Counted from the stretch's first letter, positions 22,954-30,264 are shown. The stretch is 32,000 nucleotides of DNA from Umezakia ovalisporum Ak1311 (GCF_029891685.1 NZ_JANQDJ010000081.1:1-32000); one strand, 5' to 3'. Numbers and translations are program-made. The notes: generated by a model from the sequence alone, not told the origin.

Positions 22954-24864
22954 TCAAAAGGGAAAAATTACTACCCTATTCTCCAGCATTTCTAAATACT
23001 TTTTCCGGGGATGTTCATTAGCACCAAATACCGTTACCACTTGGTATTTCTCTAAATCTGCAATCCATACAGGGGAAGGAATTACCTCCCGTCTAGTATT
23101 TCTATCGGGAAATGGATAATCTACCCTAACACCACCGCACAAGTTTTTAGCTTCAGTGTAATTTGGTCTTTCTAATTGGTGGAAATATTGATGTAAAATG
23201 TCTAGTGCATATCCCTTGTTACCATCATCTCTATTACTGACAACTATAATTTTACCATTAATATCTAAGGCCTCAAACCAGGTAAAAGAGTTAACTTTAC
23301 CACAGTTCTTTAATTGACGATGATTGAAATTAACCCCTAACCCTTGCAATCCTTGATAAAAAGCTTCTAGTCTTTGTCTAAATAATCTCTGAAATTCCTG
23401 GGGAGTGTTTGGTAGTTTCCAAAATCTATCCTCGGTATCTGGTATAAGGGTAGAACCACGTACATAAGGTCTTGTTTGGCCACGAGAATAACAAGGTCTT
23501 CTTGCACCTTGACCAACACCACCTAAATGAAACATTAACCAAGCTAGATTTTTAGCAAGTTTTTGGAGGTTATTTTTTTGGTTTTCTGGTATCTCCGGAG
23601 AATAGTTTAATGTTAAAGTACCCTCCTGTTCCCCCACAGGATCATTGTTACGTTGAGGTTCTCTTGTAGTTATCCTCCCTTCCAATACCCTCACCATTAA
23701 CCAACCATATTTTTTCTCAGGGGTAATTGTGCCAAAAATTTTACCTTCCCATTCCTGAACTTGTGTAGGGTCTAAAACTCCTAATGCAAAAGTTCTAAAC
23801 CAATAACGCAACATTGATTTAAAAGCTACAGGACGCACTTCCCCATGATTAATTGTATCCGGTCTTAAATTGTTATGGTTATTGATATAAGGTTGACGAA
23901 GATTCCTAAATTTTTGTCCACCGTGAATCAGTTGACCTTGTAAAATAAAATCAACTTGGAAAAATTCACTTTGAGGGGTAACTCTACCTGCGGGATTTAG
24001 TTGACCATAACCACTATTAACTTGAGAACCCACCCCACCCTGTAGTCCAGTAATTAACCAATGTTTGACCTTTTCTAAAATCCCATGATCTTCACAACCA
24101 CTAGCTAAACGTAATCCAATTATAAAGAAAGGTTTTTCTAAACTTAAAAATGGGTTGGGATTAGGACTATATTGTATTGAATTACCTTCCCACTTCCAAA
24201 TATTATTAGCCATGTCCACAGTTAATATATTTGCTGGCCCTTGGTTAGCCTCCGGATAAGCATCGAGAAATACAACTTTACCGGAGCGATGTTCAGGGTT
24301 TTCTCCCTCCAGAGAACCGAACCAAGGCGCAACTTGTTTTTCTGCATCTTTCCATTGAATTTGCTGTTGCGTCACAATTTCTCTAATAGCTTGGGTTCTA
24401 GCCACCCCCCGCAAAGTGCTAGAAGGAATGTATGGTAAACCCAATGCATCAAAAGCAGGTAACAAAATACTCTCTGGTCCCCGATGTCCACCTACTCTGA
24501 TCCGCCAAGGACACTGAACTTTAAAACTATTTTCGGCGATTAATTTTGTGCGCTCAGTCAGTTCTTTTAATCTTTCGCTGTAATTAGCCTGTTCGCAGGC
24601 CATTTGTAATATTTCTAATTTCGTAGAGTCTTTATACTCAGCCTCAGGCCATCGCATCCATCGCAGATATTCCACAAAACTGGCTCCTGAATCTGGTTTG
24701 GGTGGATTTTCTGGATTTATCCAAGGGGAAGGTACAGGAGGTTGGCCACCACCCCCACCACCACCTCGGTTTCCTCTATTACCTCCGTCACCATGAGAAT
24801 TATTTCTAGACTCATTGGTATTAGATTGACTTCCATTCCGTCGTCTAGGTCTTTCAAATGTCAT
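22954..24864 (-). CDS. cmr6: Type III-B RAMP protein, a Cmr6-like N-terminal half fused to a Cmr1-like C-terminal half, with a Gly/Arg/Asn-rich N-terminal tail
   Basis: First half: WRIRVGGHRGPES...LGLPYIPSSTLRGVAR, GKVVFLDAYP, and the G-rich loop GGVGSQVNSGYGQL. Second half: GEVRPVAFKSMLRYWFRTF and the G-loop HLGGVGQGARRP. The start is set at ATG 24864 (MTFERPRRR...), which has AAGGAG ~12 nt upstream and lies 5 nt after the cmr5 stop. Confidence 0.8.
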   Translation of the reverse strand: MTFERPRRRNGSQSNTNESRNNSHGDGGNRGNRGGGGGGGQPPVPSPWINPENPPKPDSGASFVEYLRWMRWPEAEYKDSTKLEILQMACEQANYSERLKELTERTKLIAENSFKVQCPWRIRVGGHRGPESILLPAFDALGLPYIPSSTLRGVARTQAIREIVTQQQIQWKDAEKQVAPWFGSLEGENPEHRSGKVVFLDAYPEANQGPANILTVDMANNIWKWEGNSIQYSPNPNPFLSLEKPFFIIGLRLASGCEDHGILEKVKHWLITGLQGGVGSQVNSGYGQLNPAGRVTPQSEFFQVDFILQGQLIHGGQKFRNLRQPYINNHNNLRPDTINHGEVRPVAFKSMLRYWFRTFALGVLDPTQVQEWEGKIFGTITPEKKYGWLMVRVLEGRITTREPQRNNDPVGEQEGTLTLNYSPEIPENQKNNLQKLAKNLAWLMFHLGGVGQGARRPCYSRGQTRPYVRGSTLIPDTEDRFWKLPNTPQEFQRLFRQRLEAFYQGLQGLGVNFNHRQLKNCGKVNSFTWFEALDINGKIIVVSNRDDGNKGYALDILHQYFHQLERPNYTEAKNLCGGVRVDYPFPDRNTRREVIPSPVWIADLEKYQVVTVFGANEHPRKKYLEMLENRVVIFPF

Positions 24865-24869
24865 TAATT

Positions 24870-27259: not shown

Positions 27260-30200
27260 TAAATATCACCTCCTAGAGTAATATTGCGATGGCGTTTAAT
27301 AAAGGCTGCAAGTTTTAACCAGTTTTCTATTTCAGCATCTAGAGGATTTTTTGTTTTTACTTTATCCTCTGACCCTTGTTTAGTACTAGTGAATAATGCT
27401 TGGAGAAAATCCACTAGATTTGTCTGAAACTGATTTTTTACACTTTCATTACCTTGAAATTGGTCCCGTCTAGCACAAAAAGCCTGTGTCCAATATCCCA
27501 TTGCTGTGCAATTAGGTGCAGGGTGTTGACTCCACAAACTTGCAGCTTGTTCAAATATGGCACTGTCTAATTCTGTTTTCGTAATTAATTTCTGCCAATT
27601 ATGGAAAACATCGAATTTAGCACTGCATTTTAAAGTATTACCATTACCATATAATACTCGCACTTGTACAGCATCTTTTTGTTTCCCTTCGGGAGATTCC
27701 TGTTGTTTTGCTTCCTGTTCTGCTTCCCAAAGACTTTCTAACGCTATGGCTAAAGGTACTGAATGATGAGCAACAACAATACCGAAACTAATAGTAGCTT
27801 CTCTACCCATGGTAAACAAGGGACGTTCAACAAAATTAACTTGTTCACCTTCTGTGGAATGGCCTCTATATTGCCAATAACCACCATTATTGTTAAACTC
27901 CCCCCTAGGATCTTCAGCACCTTTGAAACACTGGCGAATATCCCATAACCAATCATCCCATTCCCATAGATTTGTATAAGCTAAAACATCATCCCCACCG
28001 CTATAAATTAATCTACCGGCATAGCGTTTTTCTGTGAGGTAAGGAACAAGTGCATTAGAAAAGTCTAGTAATGCGCGACTTAAAGCACTATGGGTACTTG
28101 GTCCCATGCGTTTGGTTACTTGTAAGAAATTCTGAAAACCATCTAACTCCACCGATAAATTTGACGGAATATAATCACCGTACTTCTTTAGTTTCGTTCC
28201 TTTTAACCAGTCACTCATCCCATCACCATCACCAGCTGCTAACACATACCAATTGGATGGGTTATTTTTCGGGTAGTAGCTATTAATAATTTGTTGGATA
28301 TGTTGGGTAGTTTGATTTTTTACATTCAAATCTTCACCAATATCCAAATCTTCCACTAACCAACCTGCATTTAACAATCGGGGATGATGGGAATGATATT
28401 CTTTCAGTTGATTATCATTATCCACCCAAGGAATACCCCAATTTTCTGTAATCGCATCGGGAATTTGATTGTGATTTTGCAATATCCACTGTCTTAGGTT
28501 TTGACAAGCACTTACAAAATTACGTTGATGTTTGCTATCCCCAGCATTAACTTTTAAATAACCAGCTACACCAGAAGTTAAGTCTGGATAAGATACAGTA
28601 ATATCATTCTTGCTAGGGCTTAATAATTTATGGAGAACTTTAGGTAACCCACGTTTCACAGTTTCCGTAGCATTTAACTGTTCTTTACCATTAAACAAAT
28701 TTGCCTTTTTTGACCATAATTTTTTGGTTTCTCCTTCGCCAATCCAGTTTTTGCCATCTGGGTTATGGTTCACAACTGAACCAATCCCTGAAACAGTAGA
28801 ACGAGGTGCAAATGCTGTGGGTAATTCCCAATTTCTCGCATTTTTAACTGATGCTAATGCATAACGGGTGGCGTCGAATATATATCCCCACCATGAACCA
28901 ACATTAGCACTAAAGCCTCCTTTTTGTTGTTTCCAACGTTGTTTATAGGCTTCTTGTAGTAAATTTAATTCTTCATCTTTAAATAGTTTGCGCTCTTCAC
29001 GTGTTAAACCATATGCTTGGTTTTGTGCATCCACCCATTTATCAAAATCTGCTTTTTTAGTTTCATCAGCAGAAATTGTAAATCCTTCCCCTATCTTACC
29101 AATAGGTAACCCAGTCCAATAAAATTGCCATTGGGATTTCAACCAACCCGACCAAGTAACGTTATCAATGTTTAATTTTGGCATCCAATGACGAATTTTT
29201 AGTTCCTCAAATACCAATTGATAAACATTTTGCCACTCTCCCATGAGGGTTTGTCGTGCTGTTTCCATAGCAGCTTTGACTTTATCTTTAGGTAAAATTA
29301 AAACTAAAACATTGGGAAATCCAGCAGTTAACAATGATTCTGATGTGGGTTGACTTATCCATGTTTCAAATTCAGGATATTTTTGGCGTAACCAATGGTC
29401 AATTAATGGTTGTTGGTAAAGACTGGGATAAACAAGACTATCAGGGCCGTATTGGTTAGCTAATTCCCAAGATACTTTAGCCGAGAGATAATGGAGCAAC
29501 CAAGAACCAGCCCAAAAATCCCGCATCCTGCGACTAGATTTAATCAGTTCTTGTACCGGTGAGAAACTAAATACTGCTAAGTAAGGATGGGAAGTTTCTT
29601 CACCACTAAGAGAATTTTGTACTTCTTCAGTAGTTAAATCGTAACCAGCTAACCCACCAGCTAAAGCTGATGTGATGCTAACATGACTCCAAATAGAAGC
29701 ATCTGGTAATCGTGCTTCTGCCGGCATTAACATCAAAGAATTATCATTATTAAACACATTACAGGTAGCTTGGGGTAAACAACGCCATAGCCACCAATAT
29801 AGCTTTTTAATCTTTGTAACATTATGTTTAATATCTTCTTCCCGCAAGTCTTTTGGTATGGCTTCCAGTAGCAAATGTTCTTTATTTAATAAGTATTGTT
29901 GACGATTAGATTCTATAAGTTCTGCGTGTAGTTGAATTTTGAATTGTTGTTTTTCACCAGATAATAAATGTGCAATTTCTAAGCCTTGGTCTAGATTATC
30001 ACTTGGCGCATAGTCAATAGAAGCCGTCACACTACCTATAGCTCCTCTGTCGCTGGCTGAGGCTATATAATCTGCTAAAAGTATATTCTCCAATACTCCA
30101 CCAGTTGATTCTTCTGGAGTTCTACCTGTTTCAACCCAAGGTTGCATTACTTCTAATTGTTGGTAGAAGCTATTTTCACCGCGTCCAGTGTCGTTGTGTA

Positions 30201-30264
30201 AGGCTTTTAAAATAGGGTCATGCAATAACCCCCAAATTTTTGCCCGCCAGTACTCTTGTGACAT
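27259..30264 (-). CDS. cas10: Cas10/Cmr2 large subunit
   Basis: 1001 aa. The Cmr2 N-terminal motifs are LLHDP (aa 13-17) and [10 protein letters not shown]. The palm/cyclase motif is SGGDDVLAY, with GGDD at aa 756-759 (nt 27988-27999). An upstream GDGDGMSDW segment is also present. Confidence 0.9.

Follow-up and report, generated by a model that had tools for sequence, protein, structure and literature searches.

The stretch of DNA considered here, 32,000 nucleotides from Umezakia ovalisporum Ak1311 (the window: bases 1-32000 of the 58,024-bp contig C81 of genome G000, ending inside a CRISPR array that we call array 1), carries on its minus strand a five-gene operon, cas10-cmr3-cmr4-cmr5-cmr6/1, which we identify with a probability of about 0.8 as the interference operon of a CRISPR-Cas system that is chromosomal, belongs to subtype III-Bv (Cmr-type), and has its orthologue in Synechocystis sp. 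PCC 6803 CRISPR3, encoded there on plasmid pSYSA. Subtype III-Bv is characterized by a Cmr1-Cmr6 fusion and by the lack of Cas6, and works independently of other Cas6 enzymes (PMC6546367). Each of the III-Bv features for which we tested is present: i) all five effector subunits are orthologous to pSYSA CRISPR3 proteins, with 50-64% identity; ii) Cmr1 and Cmr6 are fused; iii) cas6 is missing; iv) the repeat is 36 nt long and consists of a stem-loop and an AU-rich tail; and v) a csx18-cas1-cas2 module accompanies the operon. The system is of the known III-Bv type, and the absence of a Csm6-like gene, to which we return below, leaves this classification unchanged. A preliminary description made from the window had suggested a Nostocales counterpart of the cas6-less III-Bv system, and the suggestion is well supported by the orthology of every subunit, by a gene order shared with Nostocales plasmids, and by homologous repeats. 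The locus extends the experimentally studied Synechocystis subtype to the chromosome of a bloom-forming member of the Nostocales in which the diagnostic features are all conserved, including an RNase E-type repeat.

The effector operon and its subunits

Open reading frame (ORF) listing and hidden Markov model (HMM) scans agree with the preliminary description in finding five close-packed minus-strand cmr genes (Table 1). A TAATG that can be read directly in the sequence joins the stop of cas10 to the start of cmr3. The genes that follow are spaced by 13, 37, and 5 nt, the 5-nt figure holding for a fusion gene starting with the ATG at 24864, which is the likeliest start, although the frame is open from a TTG at 24909 (651 aa). 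Over its full length Cas10 is 51% (tblastn) or 54% (alignment) identical to Synechocystis pSYSA Cas10/Cmr2, and 63-66% identical to the products of two Nostocales plasmid genes, one from Anabaena cylindrica PCC 7122 and one from Nostoc PCC 7524 (64-66% for the latter). Both of the Cas10 motifs noted previously are intact, the cyclase GGDD at aa 756-759 and the N-terminal LLHDP, whose HD residues are aa 15-16 inside GLLHDP. An alignment of five Cas10 orthologues retains GGDD in 5/5 and HD in 4/5, and the palm-1 GDGDG motif is strictly conserved among them.

The other subunits are identified with varying directness. Cmr4 is 64% identical to Synechocystis Cmr4 and matches the P. furiosus Cmr4 structure (1.5e-18). 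HMM scans gave no match for the 131-aa cmr5-like protein, which is 60% identical over 128 aa to the equally placed 131-aa protein of the pSYSA CRISPR3 operon. The product of the last gene contains two stretches of repeat-associated mysterious protein (RAMP) type by HMM scan, the N-terminal half matching Cmr6 (TIGR01898 and the Cmr6 chains in the PDB) and the C-terminal half matching Cmr1 weakly (4w8x, E 0.086). Both Cmr6 and Cmr1 HMMs match the orthologue in G024, one of the 40 sampled genomes of relatives that we compared, and the window protein is 50% identical over 612 aa to a 649-aa RAMP protein of pSYSA that has been described as a Cmr1-Cmr6 fusion (PMC6546367).

Adaptation genes, leaders, and arrays

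The preliminary description called the operon minimal and without an adaptation module. That impression was an artefact of the window edge, because the window ends inside array 1; cas2, cas1, csx18, a gene for a WYL-type regulator, and a second array follow on contig C81, at 1.4-4.6 kb beyond the right edge of the window. Read along the minus strand, the order on the contig is leader 2, array 2, the WYL gene (on the opposite strand), csx18-cas1-cas2, leader 1, array 1, a passenger gene within the trailer, cas10-cmr3-cmr4-cmr5-cmr6/1, a hairpin, and sfsA. The operon does begin beside the trailer of array 1, as had been stated; the trailer end of the array can be recognized beside cas10 from its degenerate repeats, which are found at 30531, 30604, and 31560. 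Distal to array 1 we find csx18-cas1-cas2, the WYL gene, and array 2, rather than the block of cas6 and csx1/csm6 that the preliminary description had named as the arrangement speaking against its own proposal.

The leaders of the two arrays are ~96% identical over ~185 nt, and each bears a promoter-like TAGACT-18-TACAAT on the minus strand. Arrays 1 and 2 have their two oldest (trailer) spacers in common, and every other spacer differs; 38 of the 45 repeats on the contig match the consensus exactly. This pattern fits a duplication of leader and array, followed by what would be independent gain of spacers in each, and since the spacers have diverged except for the two oldest, acquisition apparently went on after the arrays were duplicated. 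The oldest shared "spacer" is a low-complexity run of TTACTCC/TTACTTC heptamers which occurs once at the array 1 trailer (31596-31637) and twice at the array 2 trailer (36614-36655 and 36767-36808). One 38-nt spacer of array 1 is duplicated in tandem (window 31756-31867), and a similar tandem duplicate occurs in an array on contig C68 (at 123979 and 124053).

Should the locus instead be regarded as a decaying, inactive remnant? A 920-bp insert with an unrelated gene separates trailer repeats, a spacer of array 1 is duplicated, an effector gene is missing, and the spacers have no phage matches, all of which could be signs of decay; but 10/10 cas-related ORFs are intact and of full length relative to their orthologues, the great majority of the repeats conform to the consensus, both leaders are conserved, and the arrays have diverged in a manner that points to acquisition after duplication. 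We consider decay highly improbable.

The 398-aa regulator encoded between csx18 and array 2 scores 23.8 bits for WCX against a cut-off of 23.9, and is 72% identical to an equally placed "WYL domain-containing protein" of Nostoc PCC 7524. In a structure model its WYL and WCX domains are of high confidence, the best structural matches being DriD, PafBC, CapW, and BrxR; it also matches the CRISPR-related protein of PDB entry 6oaw.

Repeat structure and crRNA processing

Fold prediction for the minus-strand repeat places a 7-bp stem and 5-nt loop at nt 1-19 and leaves nt 20-36 as an unpaired AU-rich tail. The tail, ATTAATTGAATGGAAAC, is identical to the pSYSA tail, ATTAATTGATTGGAAAC, at 16/17 positions. 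The stem covaries between array variants of the genome (ATCCCTA/TAGGGAT versus GTCCCCA/TGGGGAC), and these compensatory changes therefore support the repeat hairpin. RNase E has been reported to cut the Synechocystis repeat in the AU-rich region past the stem, generating 13/14-nt handles (PMC12464536, citing Behler 2018), and an RNase E gene is present at C63:25155 (PF10150, 1e-98). The absence of cas6 at the locus, already recorded in the preliminary description and a known hallmark of III-Bv, holds across the entire 58-kb contig: profiles PF01881 and PF10040, run against the whole genome, match nothing on C81. PF01881 matches nothing anywhere in the genome, and PF10040 matches four Cas6 genes located on contigs C49, C88, and C9.

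Several observations weigh against the identification of the locus as a III-Bv system of this kind, or against its current activity. First, Cmr4 has no Asp at the position (aa 20-30) where the catalytic D26 of the P. furiosus protein aligns, which falls in an alignment gap. Second, a search with the spacers of both C81 arrays against 50,697 phage records yielded no match. Third, processing by RNase E and a handle length of 13/14 nt are, for this organism, predictions drawn from homology with Synechocystis; and fourth, the four Cas6 paralogues could process the repeats in trans.

As to Cmr4, the window protein and its counterparts in Synechocystis and Nostoc 7524 are identical in the segment SPLHTGGTTQEGNLLGIARESHT, from which a paralogue on contig C46 departs at three positions. 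The missing Asp is a family trait of III-Bv and no local defect; the motif is invariant in the Synechocystis protein, which belongs to a system that interferes. The motif, TQEGNLLGIARE, is common to the orthologues of Synechocystis and Nostoc 7524, and the C46 paralogue comes close to it.

The Cas6 paralogues raise the alternative that one of these four endonucleases, not RNase E, processes the repeats in trans, so that the locus would be a III-B system of the ordinary kind that shares a cas6 located at a distance. The repeat end AUGGAAAC resembles a canonical 8-nt handle, and in Anabaena PCC 7120 two Cas6 enzymes process remote (orphan) arrays (bioRxiv 10.1101/2020.04.14.041012). However, the repeat has its hairpin at the 5′ end, with 17 nt between it and the 3′ end, and not at the usual position for Cas6 cutting; the orthologous Synechocystis system is independent of the two resident Cas6 proteins (PMC6546367); and the near-identical tail in pSYSA is a mapped RNase E substrate. 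We regard processing by a remote Cas6 as improbable and favor RNase E.

By analogy with Synechocystis, the system would work as follows: Csx18-Cas1-Cas2 would load spacers at both leaders; the minus strand would be transcribed into pre-CRISPR RNA; RNase E of the host, with no Cas6 involved, would cut this in the AU-rich tail past the stem-loop to yield CRISPR RNAs (crRNAs) with 13/14-nt 5′ handles, (A)AUUGAAUGGAAAC; the crRNA would join Cas10, Cmr3, Cmr4 and Cmr5 in several copies, and the Cmr6-Cmr1 fusion; and binding of a target transcript would switch on the HD nuclease and cyclase of Cas10. With no receiver in cis, interference would depend on the core complex, and the targets of any cyclic oligoadenylate (cOA) signal would be CARF proteins encoded in trans, at the other type III loci of the genome; both cOA synthesis and trans-signalling by the C81 complex are what we infer.

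The missing receiver and a Csm6-fold family

Genome-wide searches with CARF, SAVED, and Csx3-type profiles (PF09651, PF09620, PF18145, PF09670, and PF09455) found none of these families on the whole of C81, although the SAVED search ran without a positive control and its negative is correspondingly weak. For the families searched, the earlier statement that no CARF/SAVED effector is encoded in cis can be extended from the window to the 58-kb contig. PF09651 matches only on C9, and PF09620 only on C9 and C49; PF18145, PF09670, and PF09455 have no match in the genome. The ORFs between sfsA and a histidine-phosphatase gene on C81 are all accounted for.

Two proteins of the locus were considered as receivers and rejected. 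The preliminary description had pointed to the 216-aa membrane protein encoded between the trailer repeats; full-length homologues (42-44% identity) occur in 2 of the 40 relatives, in neither case beside this repeat, and the protein has no CARF/SAVED match. The gene is a passenger lying outside the CRISPR system. The 398-aa WYL protein was entertained as a hidden CARF-WYL receiver and set aside, its N-terminus being all-helical and DriD/PafBC/CapW/BrxR-like, with no Rossmann-like domain.

A candidate for the effector that C81 lacks is found in other III-Bv loci. The gene next after cmr6/1 in Nostoc PCC 7524, A. cylindrica PCC 7122, and G024 encodes a protein of ~510 aa annotated as "hypothetical". 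At the first two of these, the plasmid loci, the start of this sixth gene overlaps the cmr6 stop codon, and such an overlap is frequent in the family. The protein has no Pfam or NCBIfam match. Its motifs include a CARF-like N-terminal strand, LIITVGT, together with KG(C/G)TP and an Rx4H of the form RNQIIH, and a model built with 29 homologues (mean predicted local distance difference test score 90.6) has two domains, the N-terminal one alpha/beta and the C-terminal one all-alpha. The best Foldseek matches of the model are T. thermophilus Csm6 with cyclic tetra-adenylate (cA4; 2.5e-9), E. italicus Csm6 with a cyclic hexa-adenylate (cA6) analogue, the Csm6′ of S. thermophilus, and Csx1 proteins. 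The ~510-aa family is thus predicted with high confidence to have the fold of a Csm6-type CARF-HEPN nuclease.

The genomic context of the family ties it to Cmr systems. Among 72 genomic loci encoding it (L041-L112), cmr genes are present in 63, and in 33 of the 63 loci whose upstream sequence spans 2.5 kb or more the end of a Cmr6/1 gene lies no more than 400 nt upstream. Five plasmids with a III-Bv Cas10 carry the ~510-aa gene, including 3/3 Nostocales plasmids and two from elsewhere in the cyanobacteria; it is missing from the Synechocystis plasmids and from a number of further ones with a III-Bv Cas10, and it accompanies the III-Bv Cas10 in one of five sampled relatives that have one.

In this genome the family could be found neither by family profile nor by tblastn. 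Nor is there any remnant of a sixth gene at C81, where just 83 nt separate the last stop codon of the operon from sfsA and the family profile is blank genome-wide. As a test for clean deletion we looked for sfsA or pfkB beside the ~510-aa gene and found neither at any of the 72 related loci, so that the chromosomal context is not shared. The effector-less state of the C81 locus is real, as it is in Synechocystis and unlike the state in many Nostocales relatives. The locus has either lost the sixth gene or never gained it; to speak of loss is an argument from parsimony, and against it stands the absence of the gene from Synechocystis and from 4/5 of the III-Bv relatives, which could be ancestral.

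It could be that the cyclase at C81 is not used for signalling at all, and that defence proceeds by target-RNA cleavage and HD-dependent DNA cleavage with no cOA pathway. This would be in keeping with the failure to find a CARF/SAVED gene in cis, with the intact HD motif of Cas10, and with experiments in Synechocystis in which deletion of accessory genes, including csx3-AAA, left interference unimpaired (PMC6546367). On the other hand, GGDD and the palm-1 GDGDG are strictly conserved in the orthologues compared, many sister loci have a translationally coupled Csm6-fold gene, implying that the Cas10 of this family signals, and CARF and Csx3 genes occur at other places in the genome. Absence of signalling seems to us somewhat unlikely.

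The comparison has a useful by-product in the ~510-aa family. The family is widespread in cyanobacteria and annotated everywhere as "hypothetical", and it suggests that III-Bv systems use cOA signalling, a point left open in the Synechocystis literature; if it is the cognate effector of III-Bv systems at large, signalling via cOA by III-Bv Cas10 would thereby be directly indicated for the first time. The C81 locus is a natural effector-less variant that could serve for testing trans-signalling between co-resident type III systems.

Other CRISPR elements and possible signalling in trans

Further Cas10 homologues are encoded on C9 (two) and on C46. The latter belongs to a second, paralogous III-Bv-like operon (C46 at ~16.4-32.7 kb, locus L036) whose products are 31% (cas10), 25% (cmr3), 50% (cmr4), 45% (cmr5), and 40% (Cmr6/1 fusion) identical to those of C81. 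Downstream of the C46 operon are genes for a 586-aa protein and a kinase-WYL-family fusion (borderline WCX), an ISAs1 transposase abutting a truncated cas1, and cas2; no array was found on the C46 contig. On C9, beside one of the Cas10 genes, are a 371-aa Cas_APE2256 CARF protein (2e-36) and a Csx3 (2e-32) fused to a probable AAA-type ATPase, the AAA_16 match being marginal.

The preliminary description had allowed that the signal receiver might be encoded elsewhere. This is plausible, and CARF-type genes do exist on C46 and C9; it is the cross-talk that is conjectural. It is plausible that cOA made at C81 could reach the Csm6-like protein of C46 and the Cas_APE2256 protein and Csx3 of C9. The 586-aa protein of C46 has the same RNQIIH motif as the ~510-aa family. 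Counting against a role as receiver in trans, its matches to Csm6 and Csm6-CARF are below the curated cut-offs, and alignment of its N-terminal domain with the ~510-aa family by hhalign gives E 3e-4 at a probability of 40%.

One can go a step further and suppose both that the paralogous C81 and C46 systems complement each other and that the ~510-aa family is the cognate effector of III-Bv systems generally. C81, which has no cOA receiver, keeps an intact csx18-cas1-cas2, two leaders, and active-looking arrays, and C46, with its cas1 truncated beside the ISAs1 transposase and its contig devoid of an array, keeps the Csm6-like gene immediately after cmr6/1; the nuclease of C46 may respond in trans to a signal from C81 Cas10, and the two complexes may use crRNAs of the six CRISPR3-type arrays. 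Taken as a whole we think this rather unlikely; the possible interest of the locus beyond its classification nonetheless lies in the missing Csm6-fold gene, the Csm6-fold family linked to III-Bv, and the potential for C81/C46 complementation.

Besides the two C81 arrays the genome has four more of CRISPR3 type (C33:5434-7657, C51:3075-4671, C68:123288-125738, and C83:43085-44599), whose repeats differ from the C81 repeat by compensatory changes in the stem. Searches of these four contigs for the C81 Cas/Cmr proteins and for the Cas10, Cas6, CARF, and Csx3 families gave no match. At ~4.4 kb from the C83 array a paralogue of the WYL regulator is encoded. Together the six CRISPR3-type arrays hold 146 spacers, among which we found no self-targets. 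Two other repeat classes occur, on C18, C40, and C52 (at contig ends) and on C61 and C77, comprising a ATTGAAAC-handle type and a distinct type on C77. Three of the four arrays of ATTGAAAC-handle type are broken at contig ends; the assembly is fragmented at CRISPR arrays, leaving the links between loci and arrays incomplete.

Operon flanks and chromosomal setting

At its downstream end the operon is closed by a strong hairpin directly after the last stop codon and before sfsA, as had been described; it has no U-run, and a scan for intrinsic terminators at this position called none. An Rfam scan of window 22000-32000 produced no match at gathering thresholds. Upstream of cas10, a consensus scan picked out one promoter-like match, but such matches were no commoner in the scan than expected by chance, so the evidence for a cas10 promoter is weak.

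The locus is chromosomal, since dnaN and dnaA are both inside the window (2789-5675 and 6065-7393). They lie ~17 kb from the CRISPR locus, which is therefore an island near the probable chromosomal origin; a DDE transposase gene adjoins dnaA, and a bacterial serpin gene (PF00079, 3e-122) is found among housekeeping genes at window 15939-17270. Genome G001, of the same genus and without the locus, is syntenic with C81 through sfsA, and the synteny ends at ~22864, marking the edge of the CRISPR island. Cas10 orthologues of >50% identity occur in 5 of the 40 sampled relatives and not in G001. From the break in synteny and the absence of Cas10 from G001 it follows that the island is accessory DNA in this lineage. 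On the side distal to array 2 the housekeeping genes resume (histidine phosphatase, EamA transporter, and a mycosporine-like cluster).

Table 1. Features of the III-Bv locus and its surroundings. Coordinates are those of contig C81, with which the window shares its numbering, except for the ~510-aa gene of other loci.
Feature	Coordinates	Strand	Evidence or remark
sfsA	22124-22870		
Hairpin-containing spacer, 83 nt, from operon end to sfsA	22871..22953	-	minimum free energy -22.8 kcal/mol, z -3.05
Cmr6-Cmr1 fusion RAMP protein, ~636 aa	22954..24864	-	RAMP stretches, Cmr6/Cmr1 matches, pSYSA orthology
cmr5-like small subunit, 131 aa	24870..25265	-	orthology to pSYSA protein
cmr4 backbone subunit, 263 aa	25303..26094	-	TIGR02580 2e-35
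cmr3, 383 aa	26108..27259	-	PF09700 4e-68
cas10/cmr2, 1001 aa	27259..30264	-	TIGR02577 4e-52; Cmr2_N PF12469; palm2 PF22335
cas10 upstream region	30265..30530	-	promoter-like match TAGACA-18-TAAAAT at 30324-30295
Two degenerate trailer repeats (9 and 5 mismatches) with 37-nt pseudo-spacer between	30531..30639	-	
Gene for 216-aa zinc-ribbon protein with two transmembrane segments, between trailer repeats	30874..31524	+	passenger
Array 1	31560..33148	-	7/22 repeats within window (31560..32000)
cas2	33355-33636	-	PF09827 2e-23
cas1	33646-34683	-	PF01867 5e-87
csx18	34933-35187	-	NF040558 6e-29
HTH-WYL-WCX regulator gene, 398 aa	35378-36574	+	weak WYL, borderline WCX match
Array 2	~36656-38265		second leader beyond
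~510-aa gene of other loci	L014:19191-20720; L039:19350-20882; L040:1498-3063		

Comparison with known systems

The canonical III-B systems of P. furiosus, T. thermophilus, and S. islandicus (Cmr) resemble the C81 system in having Cas10/Cmr2, Cmr3, Cmr4, a subunit of Cmr5 size, and RAMP capping subunits, as well as HD and cyclase motifs. They differ from it in that Cmr1 and Cmr6 are fused at C81 and the system has no cognate Cas6, in that a handle of 13/14 nt is predicted for C81 where theirs has 8 nt, and in the lack of an Asp at the Pfu D26 position of C81 Cmr4.

In the plasmid loci of Nostoc sp. PCC 7524 (pNOS7524.01) and A. cylindrica PCC 7122 (pANACY.03) the order WYL | csx18-cas1-cas2 - array - cas10-cmr3-cmr4-cmr5-cmr6/1 is identical, the repeat tail is identical, and Cas10 is 63-66% and the WYL regulator 72% identical to that of C81. 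The plasmids have the sixth, "hypothetical" gene (509/510 aa) at the place where sfsA follows directly at C81, and have one array where C81 has two.

Finally, pSYSA CRISPR3 of Synechocystis (Scholz 2013; Behler 2018; Shah 2019) shares with C81 the five orthologous subunits including the Cmr6-Cmr1 fusion, the csx18-cas1-cas2 module, the absence of cas6, the conserved HD and GGDD, a 36-nt repeat with a 5′ stem-loop and a near-identical AU-rich tail, and an operon without a Csm6-like gene. The differences are that C81 has neither the slr7088-like gene between cmr3 and cmr4 nor csx3-AAA or TIGR03985 neighbours; that pSYSA is a plasmid, whereas the C81 locus is chromosomal, its nearest gene ~17 kb from dnaA; that the adaptation module is divergent from and adjacent to cas10 in pSYSA but co-directional with cas10 at C81, with the array in between; and that the C81 locus has two arrays with duplicated leaders.

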